IMG/VR virus record: IMGVR_UViG_2778261657_000004
Length of the DNA stretch: 10,376 nucleotides
Origin: a virus
Taxonomy: Duplodnaviria; Heunggongvirae; Uroviricota; Caudoviricetes
Strand: one strand, 5' to 3'
In this document: positions 1 to 10,376 of the stretch, piece after piece
Layout of the letters: the number at the start of each line of letters is the position of its first letter
Position numbering within the stretch: position 1 is the first letter of the stretch
Notes under the pieces: generated by a model
Told to the model about the DNA's origin: nothing
The model's input: only the letters and a program-made list of their open reading frames with translations
Database searches by the model: none
Made by a program: the position numbers and the translations under genes

Positions 1-1236
1 CTACGATAACCGCGCATTCAACATGGCTACCTGTTCGTCGTTCATGTCATCAATCCACATACCGTAAATTTCATACACCATCTGCGCAGTTTCATGCCCC
101 ATCTGGCTGGCTATAAACGCCGGGTTCGCTCCTGCCGTCAACAGCCAGCAGGCAAAAGTATGCCGCGTATGGTACGGATTACGGCGGCGAATACCAGCAC
201 GTTTTACTGCTGCATTCCATCTCGCACCCAAACTGCTTACCGAGTAATAAGGTTTCTGTTTTCCGTTACACACTCTGGGCATGAAAACAAAATGTAGTTT
301 TTGCTTTTCGGTTCTGCCGTACTCCCGATGGTAAAAAGTGATTTCGCCTTTGCGATGATGCCCGGTCAGTTTGTATTGCTCCTTCAGTGCTTCAAGAGCA
401 GGCTGCAGTAGCGTTACTGTCCGGATCCCGGCATTTGTTTTTGGGGGACCGAACATATCAAGTATCGTCAGGTTTCTTCTGACATTCACTATTCCCTTCT
501 CGAGATCCACATCCTCCCACGCCAGAGCTGCCAGTTCCCCGTGACGAAGTCCTGAGTAAACGGCAAATTTCCACAAGTTCTGGCTCTGTCCTTTTTCACT
601 TTCCATTAATGCATTGAATTCTGTTTTAGATAACGGATCCGGCTTTATTCTGTTTCGCTGTAATTTTTTTACTCCTTCAAATGGTTTGGTTGATATAAAT
701 CCCGACTGATACGCAAAACGTAACAGCGAACAGAGCAGGGCGATATAGTTATCAACTGTGCGCACGGTTCTTCCTTTTTTGTTGGATCTTGGATTATCCA
801 GGTAAAGCGTTTCTCCATGCAGCAGTTCATTCCGGTAGTTTAGGATATCGCTATAACGAATATGTGATATCGGGGTACTTTCACAAATTATTATTCTGAG
901 TGTTTTTAATTGTGATTTCGTTTTCTTCATTGTGTTTGTTGTTAACTCTGTCTCTTTAATTTTTGTCCAGATAACACAAAGCTCCCCGAACGTTTTTATG
1001 ACTCTCGTTGTCACCATTTTTGCCCCAGTGCTGGACTGGGGAAAACGTCTTAAATACTCAAATTCACCGGAGTTTATTTCATGAACTATCAGCGCTCTTA
1101 AATTTCCGGCCTTTTTAATATTACTGTTTGTAATCTCCCAGCCTTTTAATGTTTCCCGACATCGTTTTCCTCGAAACATGAACCAGATGCGAATGTTTCT
1201 ACCTCTAATCTCGACACCTGTTGGTAATTTAGACAT
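1..1236 (-). CDS. intR: Tyrosine-type site-specific recombinase / prophage integrase (Rac IntR-like)
   Basis: 411-codon ORF, stop at 1-3, ATG at 1234-1236. C-terminal catalytic region has ...PYHTRHTFA... (H-x-x-R) and a terminal ...QMVYEIYGMW... tyrosine, typical of phage integrases. The N-terminus MSKLPTGVEIRGR... matches my recollection of Rac IntR. Confidence 0.93.
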   Translation of the reverse strand: MSKLPTGVEIRGRNIRIWFMFRGKRCRETLKGWEITNSNIKKAGNLRALIVHEINSGEFEYLRRFPQSSTGAKMVTTRVIKTFGELCVIWTKIKETELTTNTMKKTKSQLKTLRIIICESTPISHIRYSDILNYRNELLHGETLYLDNPRSNKKGRTVRTVDNYIALLCSLLRFAYQSGFISTKPFEGVKKLQRNRIKPDPLSKTEFNALMESEKGQSQNLWKFAVYSGLRHGELAALAWEDVDLEKGIVNVRRNLTILDMFGPPKTNAGIRTVTLLQPALEALKEQYKLTGHHRKGEITFYHREYGRTEKQKLHFVFMPRVCNGKQKPYYSVSSLGARWNAAVKRAGIRRRNPYHTRHTFACWLLTAGANPAFIASQMGHETAQMVYEIYGMWIDDMNDEQVAMLNARLS

Positions 1237-1237
1237 A

Positions 1238-1453
1238 TCATGAGTCTTTGATAAACTGATTTATCTTTGGATAGTTGTACCAGATAATCCCTCGTTTGCT
1301 GTCTGGCTTACCTAAAGGAGATACTCGTTTGAAGTGGAAGCCCTCCACCCAACAGTTCTGGCGGTATGCTTCAATTTGTCTGGCCCCCAGACCAGTGCGA
1401 AGCATCAGGCCGTATTCAACCATCCACTCTTCATTAAAGATTACTTGTGCCAT
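1238..1453 (-). CDS. xisR: Excisionase-like small protein (Rac YdaQ/XisR family), 71 aa from internal ATG
   Basis: Small ORF immediately upstream of int: its TGA stop (1238-1240) is 1 nt from the int ATG. The 71-aa length from Met at 1451-1453 ([10 protein letters not shown]...) fits Rac YdaQ. The ORF-track start at 1477 is a less likely N-terminal extension. Confidence 0.72.
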
Positions 1454-1552
1454 CGCATCACCTCTGGCAGGCGCCAATGTTAGACTGAAATTGACGCCTG
1501 ATGTTGATTATTAATAATCAGCTATGAAGTTTTAATTTGAATACAATGCAAT

Positions 1553-1741
1553 TCACGAGGACTGAAGTTTCTCGCAATTAAAATTTATCAGTTTTACTTT
1601 CTGCTCTCTGGAAACGCCTGCTTCTTTTTTACCTGAGAGCATTTTTTCGCATTCTGATTTCGTTAGTTTAGATTTTGAATATCTTGTCCAGTTAGTAGGA
1701 GTGCCACCTTCCTTTTCAATTGTAGCGGTAATTTTATACAT
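1553..1741 (-). CDS. ydaC: Small prophage protein, YdaC-like (function unknown)
   Basis: ORF 1553..1813. Preferred start is the ATG at 1739-1741 (MYKITATIEKEGG...), preceded by GGAGG 5 nt upstream. This start overlaps the ralR stop in an ATGTATAA arrangement. Confidence 0.6.
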   Translation of the reverse strand: MYKITATIEKEGGTPTNWTRYSKSKLTKSECEKMLSGKKEAGVSREQKVKLINFNCEKLQSS

Positions 1742-1940
1742 GAACGCCTCCATTAATATTTTCAGTGGTTCGTTTATTCCATCTTTCGAGCGCTTCTTTT
1801 TCACTTCCACCATAGCCAGTTCGGGATTCGCATCCGTTGCATTTTGCCCGGTAATATCCTGAAATGTCTTTCACCGTTACTGATGGACAACCACAAAACG
1901 GACATGGTTTAACATCGTCATATCTCAAAGTTTTTGTCAT
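1734..1940 (-). CDS. ralR: Restriction alleviation protein RalR/Lar (reported as type I toxin, DNase)
   Basis: Translation MTKTLRYDDVKPCPFCGCPSVTVKDISGYYRAKCNGCESRTGYGGSEKEALERWNKRTT... has the Cys-rich CPFCGC...CNGC motif of the Lar/RalR family. It sits between ydaC and recT as in Rac. Confidence 0.85.
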   Translation of the reverse strand: MTKTLRYDDVKPCPFCGCPSVTVKDISGYYRAKCNGCESRTGYGGSEKEALERWNKRTTENINGGVHV

Positions 1941-1984
1941 AAAAACTATCTCACGTTGGCGGTGCATTACACCGCCAGGCTGGA

Positions 1985-2818
1985 TTATTCTTCTGGATTA
2001 TCGATTACACTGTATTCCCCGGCTATAACCGATATGTCGTCTGGATTAATTGTTTCCACCTCTTTTCCATCCATCGATACTGCACGCTGGATTTCAATAG
2101 ATACCGGCAGATACTTGAACAGTTTTCGTATCACTGTCTTTTTGGCCATGTCTTCAAAGTGTTCATCCCAGATGGACGACGCCCCTTTTGACGCTGCGTT
2201 TTTTGCCGCCTTGCTGTGTGTGTCGCGAACTTTTTCTACTTGTTTGCTGGTCATGACTTCAAACTGCACTCCTCCGTCTTTCAGTTTTGCAACAGCATAG
2301 ACATGGGTTATAGGGGCATCTTCGTTTTCACCGGGACGATGAACCAGTTTTTCATCAAGGCCAAGTTCATAGCTGAATTCATCACATTCACGGACAACAC
2401 GAGCTGACAGACTGATGATTTGACCTGATCGACGGGCAAGGTCGATCATGCCGCGATAACCGATGATCAGCTGTACGTTCTTCTTACCGTTTTTTGCTTT
2501 TCCGTTGCCGAACGGTAGCAGATATGCATGACCGAGGGCGCTACCTGGCTCAAGTCCGAGCTGTGAACACTGTACGATGGCACCGATAAAACTCGTCGAG
2601 TCACAGTTTCTTAGTTCCGGTACTTTACGGATTTCTGTTGTAGCAATGCGGATCATGCGTTCCGCTGTCATGTGACGTGGCAGAGCTGCTGCCAGTTGCG
2701 CTTTCATTGCCGGGCTGTTAATCACGCACAGCACATCCTTATCGTTAACTGCTGCTGGTGCACGGTTTCCCTGAGTTTTTTGCAGATCGGCTTTTGCGAT
2801 AGGTGGTTGCTTAGTCAT
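1985..2818 (-). CDS. recT: RecT single-strand annealing recombinase
   Basis: Translation from ATG at 2816-2818 ([24 protein letters not shown]...) matches RecT along its length, including ...[24 protein letters not shown]... and ...[17 protein letters not shown].... AGGAG lies 7 nt upstream, and the ATG is embedded in the last recE codons (AATGACTAA overlap). The ORF-track start at 2875 is rejected. Confidence 0.92.
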
Positions 2819-4040
2819 TTGCATACTCCTTAGCCCAGCGGGGCAGTGATAACGTCTTAATAGCTGGCCATTCATCGGTATTTAGGCAGTCAGCCAGGGT
2901 CCGCAGATTGCGGTGATATTCCTGCTGGCCTGCCAGTTTTGCTTCTTCGCCCATCATGAAAATCTCAACCGGATAACGTCCGCATTCAACAGTTGTGCTG
3001 GCAACCAGAAAAACGAAAGTTGGCTGCACACCAAACTGTGCTTCATAACCGTCACTGTAGAATGCATCCTGAACGTGATAGCGGTAGTCGTAATAAGCCA
3101 TTTTGAATCGTTGAATATCCGCTGTGGTTTTCACGTCCATGATCCAGTGAAATTCAGGAATAATTTTGTCCGGACGGCACCGACACAAAATTCCTGTTTC
3201 CGGATCTTCCCAGTAAATTGATGATTCAGCGTGTCCGGCGCTTTCAACAAGCCATTGCCCCAGCGGCAAAGCCATAACGCTTTGATACATGAGTTCAATT
3301 TTCCGGCCTTCTTCCGCAGTGATAACCGTTTTTCCTGTGCTTGCGCATTCCATCAGAAACGCTTTCTCTTCTTCTTTTCCGGCGTTTGTACGGCGGTTAA
3401 ATTCAGGTGCTACGATAAAGCGGTTACTGAATTCTTCCGGTTCAAGTACCCGGCAGTGGAAAGCGGTTCCTAAATCGAGCGTTTTTGTCTTTGTAGTGTC
3501 CACGGGGGCATTTTTACGCCACAAATACAGTGCCGGAGTATCAGCAATGTCATCGAGCTGAGACTTACTGACACCGGGACCCGCGTGGTAATTCTCATTC
3601 GAAATTCCGTAATAAATACCTGGCTCTATGTCTTCTACGATTACGGGATCTGCGACTTCGCCAGTTTCATCACTGCAATCGCGATGCGGATCGCTGCCAG
3701 CATTCTCATTGTGCGGATGTTCAGCGCCTTCCATTTCCTCCGGATCTTTTTCCTTAGCTTCAACCTGATTCTCTTCACCGAATGTTTCCTGGTATGTTGC
3801 GTCGCCCATCACCGCACCACAGTCAGGGCAGTTATCCCCGCCAGTCTGACCGCAGGCATTGCAGACTATTTCCGGTTCCTGTTGCACTACTGGCTCAGGT
3901 TGTTTCGCATCCGGGCTGATTTTTTCCGTTTCTGGCTGGTTCTGGTACACAGAATCGCGAGTCTGGAGCCCCTTAACCCATTTCGGATCGTTCGGGTCGC
4001 TAATTCCGTCAACAAATTCACCACGTGATGCAGCAAGCAA
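2811..4040 (-). CDS. recE: Exodeoxyribonuclease VIII RecE, C-terminal portion only (5'-truncated; possible pseudogene). The frame stays open upstream to 4190 without a convincing start.
   Basis: The 409-aa ORF (TTG at 4038-4040) reads ...[30 protein letters not shown]... through to ...[13 protein letters not shown], which is the C-terminal half of RecE including the nuclease domain. The same frame continues upstream as ...[47 protein letters not shown] until a stop at 4191-4193, with no ATG and no Shine-Dalgarno. K-12 RecE is 866 aa, so roughly the first 400 codons are missing. Confidence 0.85.
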
Positions 4041-4169
4041 TTTATCGGCATCGACAGGATTTTTTGATGGAATGTTTTTCCGGGCTTCATGGAGTTCTGC
4101 CCGCAGTTCCTGATATTTCGCATCAACAGAATTTACCTGTGACTGAGCATCCAGCGGCTGCGTGTTCTG

Positions 4170-4298
4170 ATGATGTTCAGTTGGCCTAAATCACTTTCTG
4201 TTGCCATTGGTGGTGGGGTGGGGCTGATTGGTGTTGATGCTATTCGTGGTGCGGCAATGAGGGTCATCGGTAACAAGTTCGGTGCCCATAAGGAGTAA
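4170..4298 (+). pseudogene. Possible 3' remnant of a holin (S-like) gene abutting the endolysin
   Basis: Short frame [42 protein letters not shown] ending at TAA 4296-4298, 3 nt before the endolysin ATG, in the position a holin normally occupies. It has one hydrophobic stretch followed by a charged tail. Its 5' part overlaps the recE frame, so it cannot be complete. Identity as a holin is not verified. Confidence 0.25.
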
Positions 4299-4301
4299 TT
4301 A

Positions 4302-4778
4302 ATGCAGACACTTAATTCCCAGCGTAAAGCTTTCCTTGATATGGTGGCATGGTCAGAAGGAACAGATAACGGACGGCAGAAAACCAGAAATCACGGTTAT
4401 GATGTTATTGTCGGTGGCGAACTGTTCACTGATTACTCCGATCACCCCCGCAAACTTGTCACGCTAAATCCGAAACTCAAATCAACAGCCGCTGGACGTT
4501 ACCAGCTTCTTTCACGCTGGTGGGATGCCTACCGCAAGCAACTTGGCCTGAAAGATTTTTCTCCAGAAAGTCAGGATGCTGTAGCGCTGCAGCAGATTAA
4601 AGAGCGTGGCGCTTTGCCGATGATTGATCGCGGTGATATCCGTCAGGCTATCGACCGTTGCAGCAATATATGGGCTTCACTGCCGGGCGCTGGTTATGGT
4701 CAGTTCGAGCATAAGGCTGACAGTCTGATTGCAAAATTCAAAGAAGCTGGCGGAACGGTCAGAGAGATTGAGGTATGA
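4302..4778 (+). CDS. R: Phage endolysin, lambda R-type lytic transglycosylase
   Basis: 158-aa translation [53 protein letters not shown]... is near-identical to lambda R as I recall it, including the catalytic Glu in AWSEGTD. AGGAG at 4291-4295 sits 6 nt upstream of the ATG. The TGA stop overlaps the Rz ATG (ATGA). Confidence 0.95.
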
Positions 4779-5239
4779 GCAGAGTAACCGCGATTATCTC
4801 CGCTCTGGTTATCTGCATCGTCGTCTGCCTGTCATGGGGTGTTAATCATTACCGTGATAACGCCATCGCCTACAAAGAACAGCGCGACAAAAATGCCAGA
4901 GAACTGAAGCTGGCGAACGCGGCAATTACTGACATGCAGATGCGTCAGCGTGATGTTGCTGCGCTCGATGCAAAATACACGAAGGAGTTAGCTGATGCGA
5001 AAGCTGAAAATGATGCTCTGCGTGATGATGTTGCCGCTGGTCGTCGTCGGTTGCACATCAAAGCAGTCTGTCAGTCAGTGCGTGAAGCCACCACCGCCTC
5101 CGGCGTGGATAATGCAGCCTCCCCCCGACTGGCAGACACCGCTGAACGGGATTATTTCACCCTCCGGGAACGACTGGTAATGATGCAGGCCCAACTTGAA
5201 GGTGCTCAGCAATACATAACCGAGCAGTGTTTAAAGTAA
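4775..5239 (+). CDS. rzpR: Spanin inner-membrane subunit Rz (i-spanin)
   Basis: 154-aa translation [21 protein letters not shown]... has an N-terminal transmembrane helix followed by a charged coiled-coil-like region, as in lambda Rz. Its start overlaps the R stop. Confidence 0.9.
4995..5180 (+). CDS. rzoR: Spanin outer-membrane lipoprotein subunit Rz1 (o-spanin), embedded in the +1 frame of Rz
   Basis: 61-aa translation [24 protein letters not shown]...[15 protein letters not shown] has a lipoprotein signal peptide with lipobox LVVVGC and a Pro-rich mature part. GAAGGAG sits 7 nt upstream of the ATG. It lies wholly inside Rz, as lambda Rz1 does. Confidence 0.87.
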
Positions 5240-5289
5240 AATCTTAACTACAATATGATTCATTTTGATGATTGTTTCATAAGGAACAG

Positions 5290-5376
5290 TGAAGTAAGAT
5301 CTAAGAGGAGTTAAATTTTATACAGTATAATCATAATATTGCAGCAAGGTGGTTATAATTGAAAGAATATTTAGAT
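5290..5376 (+). promoter_or_regulatory. AT-rich trkG upstream region with several -10-like hexamers and an SD (promoter not resolved)
   Basis: TATAAT at 5326-5331 and 5354-5359, CATAAT at 5332-5337, and AAGGTGG at 5346-5352. No convincing -35 at 17-bp spacing was found by eye, so the exact promoter is unassigned. Confidence 0.25.
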
Positions 5377-6834
5377 ATGAATACATCTCATGTAAGAGTT
5401 GTTACTCATATGTGTGGGTTCCTGGTTTGGCTCTATAGTCTTTCAATGTTGCCACCAATGGTTGTAGCATTGTTTTATAAAGAAAAAAGCCTGTTCGTTT
5501 TCTTAATAACTTTCGTTATATTTTTTTGCATTGGTGGCGGAGCGTGGTATACAACTAAGAAATCTGGCATTCAATTACGTACCCGTGATGGGTTTATTAT
5601 AATTGTAATGTTTTGGATTTTGTTTTCTGTTATTAGTGCATTCCCTTTATGGATTGACTCAGAACTTAATTTAACGTTCATTGATGCTCTGTTTGAAGGG
5701 GTTTCTGGAATAACAACAACAGGAGCAACTGTAATTGATGATGTTAGTTCATTACCTCGGGCATATTTGTACTATCGGTCACAGTTAAATTTTATAGGTG
5801 GTTTAGGAGTTATTGTTCTGGCGGTTGCTGTATTGCCATTATTGGGTATTGGTGGTGCAAAGCTTTATCAGTCAGAAATGCCGGGGCCATTTAAGGATGA
5901 CAAACTCACTCCCCGCCTGGCCGATACGTCACGGACACTGTGGATAACTTATTCTTTATTAGGTATTGCTTGTATTGTCTGTTATAGACTTGCAGGAATG
6001 CCTTTGTTTGATGCTATTTGTCACGGGATTTCCACAGTTTCGCTTGGTGGTTTCTCAACTCATAGCGAGAGTATCGGATATTTTAATAACTATTTGGTTG
6101 AGCTGGTGGCTGGTTCTTTTTCCCTGCTATCGGCTTTCAACTTCACTCTTTGGTATATTGTTATTAGCAGGAAAACGATAAAACCTTTAATCAGAGATAT
6201 TGAACTTCGTTTCTTTCTGTTAATAGCCTTAGGGGTGATCATTGTTACCTCTTTCCAGGTCTGGCATATAGGTATGTATGACTTGCATGGAAGTTTTATT
6301 CATTCGTTTTTTCTTGCCAGCTCCATGCTCACTGATAATGGTTTAGCTACGCAGGATTATGCAAGTTGGCCCACGCACACGATAGTGTTTTTGCTGTTGT
6401 CAAGTTTCTTTGGGGGATGTATAGGTTCAACTTGTGGTGGAATTAAGTCACTTCGATTTCTTATACTTTTCAAACAAAGCAAACACGAGATAAATCAGCT
6501 TTCTCATCCCAGAGCGTTGTTGAGTGTAAATGTAGGAGGGAAGATAGTTACAGATCGTGTAATGAGGTCTGTATGGAGTTTCTTTTTTCTTTATACTCTC
6601 TTCACGGTGTTTTTTATACTGGTGTTAAATGGTATGGGATATGATTTTCTTACATCATTTGCAACAGTGGCTGCATGTATTAATAATATGGGATTAGGTT
6701 TTGGGGCTACTGCATCGTCATTCGGAGTGCTTAATGACATTGCAAAATGTTTAATGTGCATAGCTATGATTCTTGGTCGCCTTGAAATTTATCCTGTTAT
6801 TATATTGTTTTCAGGTTTTTTTTGGCGCTCCTAA
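5377..6834 (+). CDS. trkG: Potassium uptake protein TrkG (Trk-system membrane subunit)
   Basis: 485-aa translation from ATG 5377 (MNTSHVRVVTHMCGFLVWLYSLSMLPP...) is a polytopic membrane protein matching TrkG as I recall it. The coding sequence is visibly AT-rich relative to its neighbours. An alternative TTG start at 5359 has the AAGGTGG SD 6 nt upstream. Confidence 0.94.
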   Translation: MNTSHVRVVTHMCGFLVWLYSLSMLPPMVVALFYKEKSLFVFLITFVIFFCIGGGAWYTTKKSGIQLRTRDGFIIIVMFWILFSVISAFPLWIDSELNLTFIDALFEGVSGITTTGATVIDDVSSLPRAYLYYRSQLNFIGGLGVIVLAVAVLPLLGIGGAKLYQSEMPGPFKDDKLTPRLADTSRTLWITYSLLGIACIVCYRLAGMPLFDAICHGISTVSLGGFSTHSESIGYFNNYLVELVAGSFSLLSAFNFTLWYIVISRKTIKPLIRDIELRFFLLIALGVIIVTSFQVWHIGMYDLHGSFIHSFFLASSMLTDNGLATQDYASWPTHTIVFLLLSSFFGGCIGSTCGGIKSLRFLILFKQSKHEINQLSHPRALLSVNVGGKIVTDRVMRSVWSFFFLYTLFTVFFILVLNGMGYDFLTSFATVAACINNMGLGFGATASSFGVLNDIAKCLMCIAMILGRLEIYPVIILFSGFFWRS

Positions 6835-6920
6835 TATATGGCTGATTTATAATTGTGAGTTTAATATTATGTTGACTCACTCATTGATCCAATACCTAAC
6901 TTTACCAGCAACACCTCCGT

Positions 6921-6958
6921 CCCCAGTAGCACTGGCTGCTGGGGTGCGTTTTATTCAT
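6921..6958 (+). terminator. Candidate rho-independent terminator downstream of trkG
   Basis: Inverted repeat CCCCAGTAGC (6921-6930) / GCTGCTGGGG (6935-6944) forms a 10-bp stem with one G-U wobble around loop ACTG, followed by TGCGTTTTATT. The T-tract is short and separated from the stem by 4 nt, so this is moderate at best. Confidence 0.35.
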
Positions 6959-6971
6959 AAAGCAAGGCTGT

Positions 6972-7763
6972 ATGAGCGAGAAATTAAAGATAGTCTATCG
7001 CCCATTACAAGAATTGTCACCGTATGCGCACAACGCCAGGACGCACAGTACTGAGCAGGTGGCACAACTGGAAGAAAGTATTAAGCAATTCGGCTGGACT
7101 AATCCGGTGCTGATTGACGAAAAGGGCGAAATTATTGCGGGTCACGGTCGTGTTATGGCGGCTGAAATGCTCAAAATGGATTCTGTTCCGGTCATTGTTC
7201 TGTCTGGCCTGACGGATGAGCAGAAAAAGGCGTACCGCCTGGCAGATAATCGCCTGCCGATGAATGCTGGCTGGGGTGAAGATCTGTTGCGGATGGAGCT
7301 GTCGGACCTAATCAATGCTGATTTTGATGTCTCCCTGACAGGCTTCATCCCGACAGAAATTGATGAACTGTTGACGGATGTTTTGCCCGGTACAGGAAAT
7401 GAGGAGGAGCCGTATACGACGAAAATTGATACGCCTGTTTATGAGCCGTCGGGCGGTAAACCGGATATCAGTGAACTGTACGACGATACGAAAACTCAGG
7501 AGCTGATCAGCCGGATACGTTCGGCGTCCCTTGAGCCTGATATTGAGAAATTCCTCCTGTGTGCGGCAGAACGTCACACGGTGTTTAATTTCAGCAGAAT
7601 TGCGGACTATTACGCTCACGCCCCCGCTGAAATTCAGTGTTTTTTCGAGGAGTCGGCGCTGGTGATCATTGATTATCAGCAGGCTATTGAAAATGGATTT
7701 GTCCGGATGACGCAGCGCATGGTGGAGATCATGCATGGTGGTGAGGAGGAGGAATATGCGTGA
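6972..7763 (+). CDS. ynaK: ParB-like nuclease-domain (ParB/Sulfiredoxin superfamily) protein, 263 aa; full-length relative of short Rac YnaK
   Basis: N-terminal region KIVYRPLQELSPYAHNARTHSTEQVAQLEESIKQFGWTNPVLIDEKGEIIAGHGRVMAA has the ParB N-terminal domain pattern (GxGR variant of the GERR box). The C-terminal ~150 aa are acidic with no domain I can assign, ending ...HGGEEEEYA. K-12 YnaK is, as I recall, only ~87 aa. Confidence 0.82.
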   Translation: MSEKLKIVYRPLQELSPYAHNARTHSTEQVAQLEESIKQFGWTNPVLIDEKGEIIAGHGRVMAAEMLKMDSVPVIVLSGLTDEQKKAYRLADNRLPMNAGWGEDLLRMELSDLINADFDVSLTGFIPTEIDELLTDVLPGTGNEEEPYTTKIDTPVYEPSGGKPDISELYDDTKTQELISRIRSASLEPDIEKFLLCAAERHTVFNFSRIADYYAHAPAEIQCFFEESALVIIDYQQAIENGFVRMTQRMVEIMHGGEEEEYA

Positions 7764-8688
7764 TGATTTTTGCGCCTTTATTCTGACTCACGGGCGACCG
7801 GACAAAGTTCTGACTTACCGGACGTTGCGTCGTGCTGGCTATACCGGGAAAATTTTTATCGTTGTTGATGATGAAGATAAGACACGGCATCAGTACATGG
7901 CTGAATTTGGTGAACAGGTGCTGGTGTTTTCCAAAGCCGATATCGCCAGTCGTTTTGACGAAGCCGATAATTTCTGTGACCGCCGCTCAATTTTTTACGC
8001 CCGTAATGCCTGTTTCGACCAGGCAAAACTGGTCGGGTGTAAATACTTCATTCAGCTCGATGATGATTATCACGAGTTCCAGTTTCGGGTGGATCGCAAC
8101 TATGACCAGGCCTATTTTCCGATAAGGAAACTGGATGCGATCCTTTCTGAAATGCTGGCGTACTACGAATCAATACCTGCTCTTTCCATCGCTATGTCGC
8201 AGGGAGGGGATTTTCTTGGTGACAATGGCGGCCATGCTTCGTGGGTGAAACGCAAGGCAATGAACAGCTTTATCTGTTCGGTTGATCGACCGTTCTCATT
8301 CATGGGGCGCATTAACGAGGATGTGAATACGTACACGAATCTCGGTCGCTGTGGTGAATTGTTTATGACGATCGGTGCTGTCCAGTTAGGGCAGAAACAG
8401 ACGCAGAAAAACAGCGGCGGAATGACCGAGCTGTATCTGGATTCCGGAACCTACGTTAAAAGTTTTTACTCCGTCATGTATGCGCCGTCGTGCGTAAAAA
8501 TCTCACTGATGGGTGCCAGCCATAAACGCATTCACCATCAGGTCACCTGGAACAACGCTGCAGTAAAAATCCTTCACGAAAAATACAGGAAGAAGACACC
8601 CTGCATATCAATGGGGGTGACAAATGATTCCGTATTCGAAAGTCGAGTCTCTGGCAGCGTGCCGGATGACTGCACAACAAATCGCTGA
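7756..8688 (+). CDS. Hypothetical prophage protein (~310 aa) with GT-A-like motif pattern (possible nucleotide-sugar transferase fold); function unknown
   Basis: ATG at 7756 is preceded by the GAGGAGGAGG purine run and overlaps the upstream stop (ATGCGTGA). The N-terminus has a beta-alpha-beta pattern AFILTHGRPDK...GKIFIVVDDEDK, with a DxD-like YFIQLDDDY about 60 residues later, spacing typical of GT-A glycosyltransferases. There is no Walker A motif. This is inference from motifs only. Confidence 0.6.
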   Translation: MRDDFCAFILTHGRPDKVLTYRTLRRAGYTGKIFIVVDDEDKTRHQYMAEFGEQVLVFSKADIASRFDEADNFCDRRSIFYARNACFDQAKLVGCKYFIQLDDDYHEFQFRVDRNYDQAYFPIRKLDAILSEMLAYYESIPALSIAMSQGGDFLGDNGGHASWVKRKAMNSFICSVDRPFSFMGRINEDVNTYTNLGRCGELFMTIGAVQLGQKQTQKNSGGMTELYLDSGTYVKSFYSVMYAPSCVKISLMGASHKRIHHQVTWNNAAVKILHEKYRKKTPCISMGVTNDSVFESRVSGSVPDDCTTNR

Positions 8689-8908
8689 CGTTCTGGATGT
8701 TGATCTGAACCGACTGAAAGAAAATCGGGAAGCCGCGTGGGAAATCTGGAGTAAAACACTGACTGGAGAAACAGTTCCGTTCAGCTTCACGCTTTCGAAT
8801 GGAGAGGGGGCATACACTTTCAGTTTCCCGAAGGTTCAGGTGTCAGGTGAATGGCCTGATGGGGGTAATAGCGACATTATCAGAAGTGGAACGGCACAGC
8901 CTGGGTGA
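8624..8908 (+). CDS. Hypothetical 94-aa protein or remnant of an unidentified phage gene
   Basis: ORF with SD GGGGGTG 5 nt upstream of ATG 8624. It overlaps the 3' end of the preceding gene by 65 nt in another frame. The N-terminus has a helix-turn-helix-like stretch ([20 protein letters not shown]). Its TGA stop overlaps the GTG that opens the tfa fragment. No family assigned. Confidence 0.3.
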
Positions 8909-9138
8909 AGGATACGGAAGCAGAAAAACTGTTCCGGATCCGGGAGGCGGAAGAAACAAAAAAAAGCCTGATGCAGGTAGCCAGTGAGCATATTGCGCCG
9001 CTTCAGGATGCTGCAGATCTGGAAATTGCAACGGAGGAAGAAATCTCGTTGCTGGAAGCATGGAAAAAGTATCGGGTATTGCTGAACCGTGTTGATACGT
9101 CAACTGCACAGGATATTGAATGGCCAGCACTGCCGTAG
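8881..9138 (+). pseudogene. tfaR: Tail fibre assembly protein (TfaR-like), 3' fragment only
   Basis: Frame reads [86 protein letters not shown], the conserved C-terminus of lambdoid Tfa proteins. The frame is closed by TAG at 8869-8871 immediately upstream, so the N-terminal ~100 codons and the whole stf gene are absent. Confidence 0.75.
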
Positions 9139-9235
9139 GGTAAAACATATAAATTCTATAATTAGATGTATCTTTCCATTTACGGCAAGGAAGGGGGCTT
9201 GGAAGACGTAAAGCATCTCACACCGAGATTATTTT

Positions 9236-9826
9236 TTATATGTCAGGTGTCTGAAGTTTTGCTTTGGCTCTTAAAATGGTTTGCCGCGAGGTTTTGAATT
9301 CCCGGGCAATGGCACTTATACTTACACCTGACTTAATTCGTTCGAATACCACCTGTTTCTGTTCTTCATTTAACACAGGTGGTCGACCAAAACGTTTCCC
9401 TGCGCCGCGGGCTCTTACTATCCCGGAATGAGTGCGTTCAAGTAAAAGGTCTCGTTCAAATTCAGCGACTGCTGAAATTACTTGCATCATCATTTTTCCT
9501 GTTGGACTGGTCAGGTCAATGCCAGCCAATGCTAAGCAATGCACTCTGATACCTGTTTCGGTCAGTTGTTCCACTGTTTTCCTGATATCCATTGCATTAC
9601 AACCAAGGCGATCCAGTTTTGTCACAATCAATTGATCACCACATTTCAGGCGAGCAAGCAACCGGTTAAAACCAGGACGCTCACTGGTTGCTGCTGAGCC
9701 GCTAATGTGTTCTTCGATTATTTGCTGAGGTTTGATTTTAAAACCTGCACTTTCGATTTCCCGGCGTTGATTTTCGGTGGTCTGATCCAGCGTTGATATC
9801 CGACAGTAAGCAAAAATTCGAGACAT
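9236..9826 (-). CDS. pinR: Serine recombinase / DNA invertase (Pin/Hin/Gin family), PinR-like
   Basis: 196-aa translation [29 protein letters not shown]... has the catalytic serine in the N-terminal YCRISTLDQ motif and a C-terminal HTH ([20 protein letters not shown]). It lies next to the tfa remnant as in Rac and e14. Confidence 0.94.
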
Positions 9827-9963
9827 AGTGAGACTCTATACGAAATTGGTGTTCATATCATAATGCATCTCAGAAAATAATTATGATTATTTTTGTGCAT
9901 ATTTGTATGTACACGTTCGAAAATAAACGAATGCGTATGCAACCCCGTAATTTTGGTGAGACC

Positions 9964-9977
9964 CAAAATCGATTTTG
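9964..9977. promoter_or_regulatory. Perfect 14-bp palindrome CAAAATCGATTTTG in the pinR upstream intergenic region; candidate protein-binding site
   Basis: Exact dyad symmetry read directly from the sequence at 9964-9977, about 140 bp upstream of the pinR start in the 316-bp pinR/ynaE intergenic region. Function is not known. Confidence 0.3.
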
Positions 9978-10142
9978 TGAAAAATGGCTTTAACTCGGTT
10001 TGTTTTTCGAGTTCCGGGCGGACTCAAGGAAGAAGAATAGTGTTGCGTGTTATTTTAACCAGATTTCAAGTTGTTTGGTCGTGGAAAAGTGGAGCAAAAT
10101 GTTGTTAAAGTGGAAAAATGATAAAAAAGTAAGTTTATTATA

Positions 10143-10376
10143 TTACATTTTACCATTTAAATTTTGGTTGTCTTTAAGAACTGATATCGCTGTTTGTAAT
10201 AATTCTTTGTTATCCAGCCATGATTTTTTCTTTATGTTTCCTTCAATGTAATCAAGCAATGTTCTGGTATTGATAGGTCTTCCCTGTTTTGCTACTTCCA
10301 CTACAGCATTCCCTAGGATAATTCTTACTTCAGGAAGCTGCGCAGGGAACCACTTTAGGGTGTCTTTTGATTTCAT
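10143..10376 (-). CDS. ynaE: Small prophage protein YnaE (YdfK/YnaE family, cold-shock-induced family in K-12)
   Basis: 77-aa ORF with its ATG at the very end of the window (10374-10376). The translation MKSKDTLKWFPAQLPEVRIILGNAVVEVAKQGRPINTRTLLDYIEGNIKKKSWLDNKELLQTAISVLKDNQNLNGKM matches my recollection of Rac YnaE. Confidence 0.78.
   Translation of the reverse strand: MKSKDTLKWFPAQLPEVRIILGNAVVEVAKQGRPINTRTLLDYIEGNIKKKSWLDNKELLQTAISVLKDNQNLNGKM

Follow-up and report, generated by a model that had tools for sequence, protein, structure and literature searches.

The 10,376-nucleotide window analysed here (IMG/VR virus record IMGVR_UViG_2778261657_000004) is the intR to ynaE span of the Rac cryptic prophage at the ttcA site of Escherichia coli, on which open reading frames (ORFs), Pfam, Rfam and the Prokaryotic Genome Annotation Pipeline (PGAP) annotation of the near-identical AR_0061 locus agree. 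It is very probably an ordinary, clone-specific Rac remnant made by small-homology deletions, in which two adjacent genes, encoding a ParB-like protein and a GT-A glycosyltransferase of the TAGT family (PF20691), are passengers and not maintained by the host. A first-pass annotation, made from the sequence alone, had listed the surviving modules as int/xis, ralR, a recET core, lysis enzymes, trkG, the ParB-like pair and pinR, and Pfam, Rfam and PGAP confirmed this list. It had also described the compaction as extreme, seen in what survives a bias towards genes of plausible host benefit or selfish maintenance, and on that basis taken the pair to be functionally retained.

The Rac assignment was established from the integration site, the attachment (att) sequences and synteny. 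In draft assemblies collinear with the window, the element is flanked by ttcA at one end and by ynaM, uspF and ompN at the opposite end. In one of these (L025), the att core TTGTTCAGGTTGTAT... is found 3' of ttcA and is repeated past ynaM, the two copies agreeing at 24 of 26 positions. The window matches K-12 in the order and identity of intR, xisR, ralR, recT, recE, trkG, pinR and ynaE, and aligns to it in three collinear blocks of 93.6%, 99.8% and 99.6% identity. Thus K-12 Rac (b1345-b1375) has the same ttcA site, att core and intR-xisR-rcbA-ralR/RalA-recT-recE left arm, a Rz/Rz1-trkG-ynaK centre that is 99.8% identical, and a tfaR-pinR-ynaE right end that is 99.6% identical. By alignment, the intR–ynaE interval is 10,376 bp here vs. 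22,225 bp in K-12; from the attL core to the attR core, the element spans 11,236 bp in the lineage of the window vs. 23,086 bp in K-12, where the Rac feature is annotated at 23,060 bp. The two sizes given in the first-pass annotation, about 23 kb for K-12 Rac and under 10.4 kb for the interval from int to pinR/ynaE, were thus accurate, and the element has indeed shrunk to about half. However, "extreme" overstates the case. Among loci that were retrieved individually, FG31-1 measures 9,988 bp from attL to attR, BE2-5 12,979 bp, AR_0061 13,701 bp and REL606 17,522 bp, and the int-to-ynaE interval of FG31-1 and M37H is 9,127 bp. The window is not the smallest Rac; FG31-1 is smaller.

Neither is K-12 Rac merely a larger version of this remnant. 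K-12 keeps racC through ydaW, ydaY, ynaA, lomR and stfR, all of which the window lacks, whereas the window keeps the truncated holin gene, the R endolysin gene, the full-length ParB-like gene and the TAGT gene. K-12 lacks 2.3 kb that the window retains (4184-4794 and 7226-8879), because K-12 has deletions of its own there, and the recT of the window is a different allele from that of K-12.

Junctions were mapped by aligning the window with ON470614.1 (locus L005), a Rac-like prophage that is nearly intact, and with AR_0061 (L001), the complete genome closest to the window. The near-intact Rac-like phages vB_EcoS-666R9 and 683R6 (ON470614.1, ON470595.1) are 99.8% identical to the window over 4182-8733 and give the ancestral order holin-R-Rz-trkG-ParB-like-TAGT-orf69-terS-terL; they retain a 13.9-kb early region and a morphogenesis region of more than 20 kb, both of which the window has lost. 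Three junctions, J1 to J3, account for the difference (Table 1). The J1 deletion took recE codons 1 to ~409, racC, ydaE, kilR, sieB, the immunity, replication and nin regions, Q and the 5' part of the holin gene. The J2 deletion starts 45 bp 3' of the TAGT stop codon and removes the 3' end of orf69, terS, terL, the portal and head genes and the 5' part of the tail-tube gene. The J3 deletion removed the remainder of the tube fragment, ydaY, an older junction and the 5' half of tfaR. That older junction, which joins the ydaY region to the stfR 3' end, is still seen in AR_0061; since it was later swallowed by J3, at least four deletions shaped the remnant. The first-pass annotation had proposed at least three junctions, a number that is borne out. 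It placed J1 (~4170-4195) and J3 (8870-8880) correctly, but counted J3 a second time as the 5' end of tfa and missed J2.

From these junctions we infer that an ancestral lambdoid prophage exceeding 40 kb would have been reduced to 11.2 kb, in the AR_0061-related lineage, by at least four illegitimate deletions at microhomologies of 2-4 bp. The first would have run from the recE N-terminus through immunity, replication and Q into the holin gene, so that racR was lost along with the toxic genes under its control; the second would have taken terS, the head genes and part of the tail-tube gene; the tail, the tail-fibre and the 5' region of tfaR would have gone in the third and fourth. What remains would then fall into three groups: the ends for integration and excision (att sites, int, xis and the pinR-ynaE end), a core that other examined remnants also keep (ralR/RalA, rcbA, recT, the nuclease half of recE and trkG), and passengers caught between deletion endpoints (the holin stump, R, Rz/Rz1, the ParB-like/TAGT pair and the tail-tube and tfa fragments).

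The possibility that the window is an assembly chimera or collapse, which the first-pass annotation had named among the findings that would overturn its reading, was examined by alignment. Population counts were made over 5,426 complete E. coli genomes, in which J1 occurs once, in AR_0061, J2 likewise in AR_0061 only, and J3, alone or together with J2, in none. In favour of an artefact, then, J3 is absent from every complete genome, and AR_0061 differs from the window by having 1.2 kb more at that place and an insertion sequence, IS3, in recT; there are otherwise four substitutions between the two. However, J1 and J2 are both present in that complete genome, and the ORF spanning J2 and J3 is indexed repeatedly, in an 80-aa form in 43 blocks and a 94-aa form on 14 contigs. 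Eight draft loci were retrieved, and all eight are collinear with the window at 99.92-99.97% identity, so that at least eight draft assemblies, and probably dozens, have the J3-bearing architecture. The three junctions are clean, with microhomologies of 2-4 bp, and have no repeats of a kind that leads assemblers astray. A chimera was rejected on these grounds, and we consider its probability negligible. Since AR_0061 carries J1 and J2 and many drafts carry the J2-J3 ORF, the arrangement is a true and recent feature of one clone. Variation within the clone amounts to 11 variable sites, with five nonsynonymous changes to one synonymous in intact genes, giving no power to test selection. One assembly of the clone (L029) leaves the window inside the tfaR fragment (past 10503, window equivalent 9126) and continues with a MASE4-GGDEF gene, pbp, bio genes and uvrB instead of pinR-ynaE, a further rearrangement or deletion.

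A different origin would be homologous recombination or mosaic exchange with other lambdoid prophages, which would make the window a hybrid and not a decayed Rac. One segment does look foreign: a block at ~1700-2800, comprising recT and the 3' end of ralR, is 54-85% identical to K-12 and ON470614.1 amid flanks that are mostly 94-100% identical. With a dS of ~1 and a dN/dS (ratio of nonsynonymous to synonymous substitution rates) of 0.12, recT looks like a mosaic replacement taken from another phage by recombination. Many other prophages have copies that match the tail-tube fragment at 100% identity, and BE2-5 carries an inversion in that region. Yet in one near-intact Rac-like prophage the two points joined at each junction are found in collinear order with unchanged orientation, they share only 2-4 bp, and the sequence on both sides is 98.7-99.8% identical to ON470614.1. 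Exchange as the main source of the arrangement is thus highly improbable, and decay of Rac by deletion remains the preferred account.

Deletional decay of this kind fits the general framework of prophage domestication; defective prophages are said, in the work of Bobay, Touchon and Rocha in PNAS in 2014, to lose most of their DNA fast while a subset of genes stays under purifying selection. The window is one more example, whose recent and clonal deletions say little on selection. To see what remnants keep, we compiled gene presence and absence for the window, AR_0061, K-12, REL606, BE2-5 and FG31-1. These six loci represent four independent decay histories (window/AR_0061, K-12, REL606 and BE2-5/FG31-1), BE2-5 and FG31-1 having a common left junction and differing on the right only. 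A constant core is found in all four lineages: intR, xisR, rcbA, ralR/RalA, recT, the C-terminal 457 codons of recE, trkG, pinR and ynaE. All genes outside it vary across the six loci. The toxic immunity region (kilR, racR, ydaS, ydaT) is deleted as a block in the window. Independent deletions also break recE repeatedly within its N-terminal half and end in the lysis region, as in the junction of FG31-1 and BE2-5 and in the IS1-associated one of JNQH497, and further N-terminal truncations of recE were present in a survey of recET. Losses within the core occur as well: AST205 lacks all of recE, BL21 has an internal recE deletion, and IS3 interrupts recT in AR_0061, so that recT is dispensable in that sister strain. 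This IS3 lies at 8114-9371 of the AR_0061 locus (window 2111-2113) with a 3-bp target duplication. Long-term retention of ralR/RalA, rcbA, recT, the recE nuclease half and trkG is plausible. That the survivors are biased towards useful genes is thus upheld for a core kept in four lineages, a pattern that is real but already known in outline: the size and content of Rac differ by strain, recE and trkG are well conserved, and the toxins are lost together with their repressor (PMC5700373). The claim does not extend to the ParB-like/TAGT pair, which lies outside the core, and the lysis enzymes are passengers too.

The comparison across genomes that the first-pass annotation had proposed as a check separates the pair from its neighbour. 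Of 1,551 genomes with some trkG sequence, 1,539 have at least 80% of the gene; of 1,580 with some part of the pair, 889 have it complete; and terS-terL is complete in 757 of the 5,426. The main drop therefore falls across the pair. About 650 genomes keep trkG without the full pair, which is lost or truncated in ~42% of trkG-positive genomes. Prophages that still bear packaging genes can account for most of the complete pairs, as judged by comparing totals and not genome-by-genome overlap. The pair is truncated or absent in K-12, REL606 and FG31-1, and it is therefore outside the constant core. Deletion endpoints fall within it repeatedly, at 231 (B strains), 254 (K-12), 421, 438, 655 and 922 of its 1,717 positions, and in one further genome an IS3 interrupts it, the match stopping at 1360. 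About 20 or more protein clusters consist of truncated or fused E. coli pieces of the ParB-like and TAGT proteins, joined to Lom, Tfa, NlpC/P60, terminase or tail-fibre sequences, and 2 of 22 sampled full-length TAGT copies (A30 and TL012) are frameshifted. Rearrangements of other kinds also touch this region. In BE2-5 (L003 11386-12952), the 3' end of the TAGT gene, orf69 and terS are inverted relative to intact relatives, and TAGT is split at the window equivalent of 8636. In XD35 (L018 3570-5117) and XH989, a Lom fragment with the iron/manganese transporter genes sitABCD behind it adjoins the Rac late region, the join falling just past TAGT or within ynaK; this suggests another cargo insertion in Rac.

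The setting of the pair in the window also points away from function. In lambdoid phages the late promoter lies between Q and the holin gene. Both Q and the Q–holin region lie inside the J1 deletion. A terminator-like hairpin precedes the ParB-like gene (Table 1) and would insulate the pair from trkG transcription once antitermination by Q was lost, and a promoter and terminator scan, which scored consensus matches only, found no promoter-like site 5' of the ParB-like gene. Because of these three features, the pair is probably transcriptionally orphaned in the remnant. In addition, the ParB-like protein carries the substitution D102G (window 7276, codon 102), which is confined to the window and to L028, a second assembly of the clone. 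The aspartate belongs to a GW-D motif and is at least 90% conserved in an alignment of 38 family members, so that the change could be one of loss of function.

That neither ORF of the pair is disrupted in the window weighs, on its face, against regarding it as a passenger. However, J1 and J2 are private to one clone, and little time has elapsed for inactivating changes; the deletions are too recent for intactness to bear on selection. The dN/dS comparison, the other check that had been proposed, gave 0.06 for intR against K-12 and 0.12 for recT, but for the pair within Rac lineages it is underpowered, with five nonsynonymous to two synonymous differences from ON470614.1 and six to two from locus L006. 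Three further points count on the same side as the intact ORFs. In full-length copies linked to trkG, the ratio of nonsynonymous to synonymous polymorphism (pN/pS) is 0.13 (TAGT) and 0.38 (ParB-like gene) vs. 0.22 (trkG), which looks constrained for the pair; the numbers are low, however, and some of the variation forms clusters, as though it had come from active phages. The genome counts lack phylogenetic correction, with K-12 and B laboratory strains over-represented. Over-expression of the truncated K-12 gene ynaK, which derives from the ParB-like gene (see below), raised the minimum inhibitory concentrations (MICs) of six antibiotics in a 2026 screen (PMC12924614), so that the ParB-like domain may have some effect on the host.

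Taken together, these observations might be read as domestication, the pair being selected for a host benefit in the manner of trkG or recET, for example through DNA or protein glycosylation affecting restriction, defence or stress. Such a reading could call on the 889 complete genomes in which both ORFs are also intact, on pN/pS values near that of trkG, on the altered MICs, and on deletion endpoints that fall just 3' of TAGT in several remnants (the window, at +45 bp, XD35 and USMARC-51688). It is nonetheless improbable, for the pair is missing or broken in much of the trkG-positive population through many independent endpoints, the terS-terL carriers can explain most complete copies by their totals, the smaller FG31-1 remnant does without it, TAGT frameshifts occur among full-length copies, and in the window the late-promoter region is gone, the hairpin stands ahead and a near-invariant residue is changed. 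The pair is best read as a passenger on a 4.55-kb block containing trkG, its survival being hitch-hiking and not proof of host need, and the claim of functional retention is not supported by the population comparison.

Table 1. Features and deletion junctions of the window (positions in the 10,376-nucleotide stretch)
Feature	Position	Strand	Basis or detail
intR tyrosine integrase, intact, 411 aa	1..1236	-	Pfam Arm-DNA-bind_2 and Phage_integrase; length as K-12 intR
xisR excisionase, intact	1238..1453	-	Pfam DUF1233; coding sequence same as K-12
rcbA-like DUF1187 protein, 62 aa	1553..1741	-	Pfam DUF1187 2e-38; phrog_5753
RalA antitoxin small RNA (sRNA)	1557..1735	+	Rfam RF02694, 218 bits vs. 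gathering score 170, full-length
ralR type I toxin (Lar-like restriction alleviation/DNase)	1734..1928	-	Pfam Lar_restr_allev; PGAP in AR_0061
recT, intact, divergent mosaic allele	1985..2794	-	Pfam RecT 2e-50
recE C-terminal fragment, 457 codons (~410-866 of 866), PD-(D/E)XK nuclease domain	2811..4181	-	Pfam DUF3799; K-12 alignment up to J1
J1, ~13.9 kb lost, microhomology TG	4183/4184		Window 4183 = ON470614.1 4223; 4184 = 18115
Holin C-terminal fragment, non-functional	4184..4298	+	Phage_holin_3_1 profile 65-99 only; PGAP "missing N-terminus"
Lambda R-type endolysin (GH24), intact, 158 aa	4302..4778	+	PGAP glycoside hydrolase family 24; 99.8% identical to ON470614.1
Rz spanin, embedded Rz1 at 4995-5180	4775..5239	+	Pfam Phage_lysis 6e-53, Rz1 2e-19
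trkG K+ transporter moron, intact, low GC	5377..6834	+	Pfam TrkH 1e-144
Terminator-like hairpin between trkG and ParB-like gene	6921..6944	+	10-bp stem, 7 GC pairs, then T-rich tail TGCGTTTTAT
ParB/Srx-N-domain protein, 263 aa, with D102G	6972..7763	+	Pfam ParB_N 28.6 bits; phrog_620 1e-88
TAGT-family (PF20691) GT-A glycosyltransferase, 310 aa, "GREB1-related"	7756..8688	+	
orf69 5' fragment (small ORF preceding terS in intact relatives)	8666..8733	+	ON470614.1 22597-22806, cut at 22664
J2, ~9.6 kb lost, microhomology AAGC	8733/8734		Window 8733 = ON470614.1 22664; 8734 = 32303
Tail tube (BIG2-domain) gene, internal fragment, 148 bp	8734..8881	+	98.7% identical to ON470614.1 32299-32450; PGAP "phage tail tube protein, partial"
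J3, 1.2 kb lost relative to AR_0061, microhomology TATC	8881/8882		Window 8881 = AR_0061 locus 16142; 8882 = 17347
tfaR C-terminal fragment, last ~85 codons	8882..9138	+	Caudo_TAP profile 56-130; aligns with K-12 tfaR from L002 23729
pinR serine invertase, intact, 196 aa	9236..9826	-	Pfam Resolvase and HTH_7
ynaE/ydfK cold-shock protein gene, window edge	10143..10376	-	PGAP; 99.6% identical to K-12

The RalR ORF and the overlapping antisense RalA sRNA are both present, making up a type I toxin-antitoxin system. A RecET module, understood as full-length recE with its own start plus recT, is not: recT is intact, and recE retains 457 of 866 codons, with no canonical start at its 5' end, the first in-frame ATG, GTG or TTG being the TTG at 4040. 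PGAP annotates this fragment as a pseudogene, and by Pfam its nuclease domain (DUF3799) is complete. A lambda-type lysis cassette, with a complete holin gene 5' of the endolysin gene, is likewise absent, since the 5' part of the holin gene lies inside J1; R, Rz and Rz1 are intact. Because the truncation of the holin leaves them useless, the endolysin and spanins are passengers like the pair. GC content falls to 0.33-0.41 over ~5200-7000, around trkG, vs. ~0.43-0.54 in adjoining windows, and the lambdoid prophages of LY180 and A30 (loci L009 and L010, around 8600-9000) carry lysis genes, the ParB-like gene, TAGT, orf69 and terS without trkG at the same position of the cassette. The pair thus exists without trkG, which shows that trkG came in between Rz and the pair as a low-GC moron. 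Within the tfaR fragment, window 8906-9104 matches the Rfam family IS009 (RF02111) with 219 bits; this "RNA" family thus overlaps conserved coding sequence for tail-fibre assembly.

In K-12, a deletion specific to that strain has fused the 5' part of the ParB-like gene into ydaY; the product, ynaK (87 aa, L002 16378-16641), is what is left of the N-terminus of the 263-aa protein. The full-length protein has a ParB/Srx N-terminal domain (PF02195), its ParB_N score exceeding the cut-off of 26.3 bits, and matches Spo0J in a phmmer search (2.5e-5). In an AlphaFold model, this domain is predicted with a local confidence (pLDDT) of ~73-92, and its top Foldseek matches are ParB, Noc, KorB and Srx. 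The C-terminal domain is strongly conserved, family-specific and helical; modelled at a pLDDT of ~45-80, it returned no interpretable or confident fold match from Foldseek. A chromosome or plasmid partition ParB was considered and rejected, as Pfam found no central helix-turn-helix (HTH) family match and the locus has no parA gene. The product of the second gene scores above the curated cut-off of the TAGT profile and has a GT-A fold and an acidic DxD motif; a sequence search of the PDB returned no match.

Homologues of the two proteins, 45-85% identical, were found always adjacent and usually overlapping in five unrelated phage backbones (eight neighbourhoods, L011-L016, L033 and L034), where the ParB-like proteins have ~260-287 aa and the TAGT proteins ~283-297 aa. 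Four of the five backbones have the pair immediately 5' of the terminase genes or no more than ~1.4 kb away from them, and the backbones with identified terminase genes represent three terminase families. Between phage alleles, dN/dS of the pair is 0.08-0.17; a TAGT value against A30 was discarded because the A30 copy is frameshifted. By these comparisons of sequence, the pair is a genuine and conserved phage late-operon cassette, whose place in intact phages is immediately 5' of terS, and it is not junk in phage.

The closest known systems are modules in which a TET/JBP-family dioxygenase (5mYOX) is accompanied by a ParB protein and a glycosyltransferase (PMC13229309; PMC8256090). ParB-like proteins activate these phage DNA-modifying (thymine) dioxygenases on double-stranded DNA, and glycosyltransferase, ParB and terminase genes are the commonest neighbours of such enzymes (PMC13229309); a further proposal is that ParB guides modification enzymes to the DNA as it is packaged (PMC8256090). 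The Rac pair resembles these modules in having a ParB-N protein without evident HTH beside a TAGT-family GT-A enzyme and next to terminase genes. The architecture of the ParB-like protein is compatible with the NBD plus CTD layout, lacking a DNA-binding domain, of 5mYOX-associated ParB activators, but it has no 5mYOX neighbour. The T2/T6 beta-glucosyl-HMC alpha-glucosyltransferase (phrog_842 / PF20691; PMC13390438) belongs to the same TAGT family. The pair most likely comprises a ParB-like activator or targeting factor and a GT-A glycosyltransferase that would act on phage DNA late in infection, around packaging.

The difference lies in the partner. Neither a TET/JBP dioxygenase nor a hydroxymethylase was found beside the pair in any of the eight neighbourhoods, nor in the annotation of ON470614.1, and a Pfam scan of 10 proteins, mostly hypothetical, of the near-intact Rac-like phage revealed neither a TET/JBP enzyme nor a hydroxymethylase. 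In the neighbourhoods and proteins scanned, the TAGT gene thus has no genomic association with a 5mYOX neighbour or another source of hydroxymethyl-pyrimidine, in contrast to the known modules. It is conceivable, though we think it unlikely, that the pair is a self-contained packaging-coupled glycosylation cassette that needs neither dioxygenase nor hydroxymethylase and may stay active in remnants if there is readthrough from trkG. If true, this would be an undescribed glycosylation, and its target could be unmodified or host-modified DNA, or protein.

For Rac itself, the compaction matters little: it is one more decay variant in one clone, and both the variable size and the recE/trkG core were already published. 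Its main value is negative, in that surviving several recent deletions beside a selected neighbour is no evidence of function. The dioxygenase-less ParB-like/TAGT cassette is the only lead of wider interest. Cassettes of this kind, of which the K-12 gene ynaK is a stump, are widespread next to phage terminase genes, and as a dioxygenase partner defines the known ParB-glycosyltransferase systems, its absence here gives a testable lead on what such cassettes modify.

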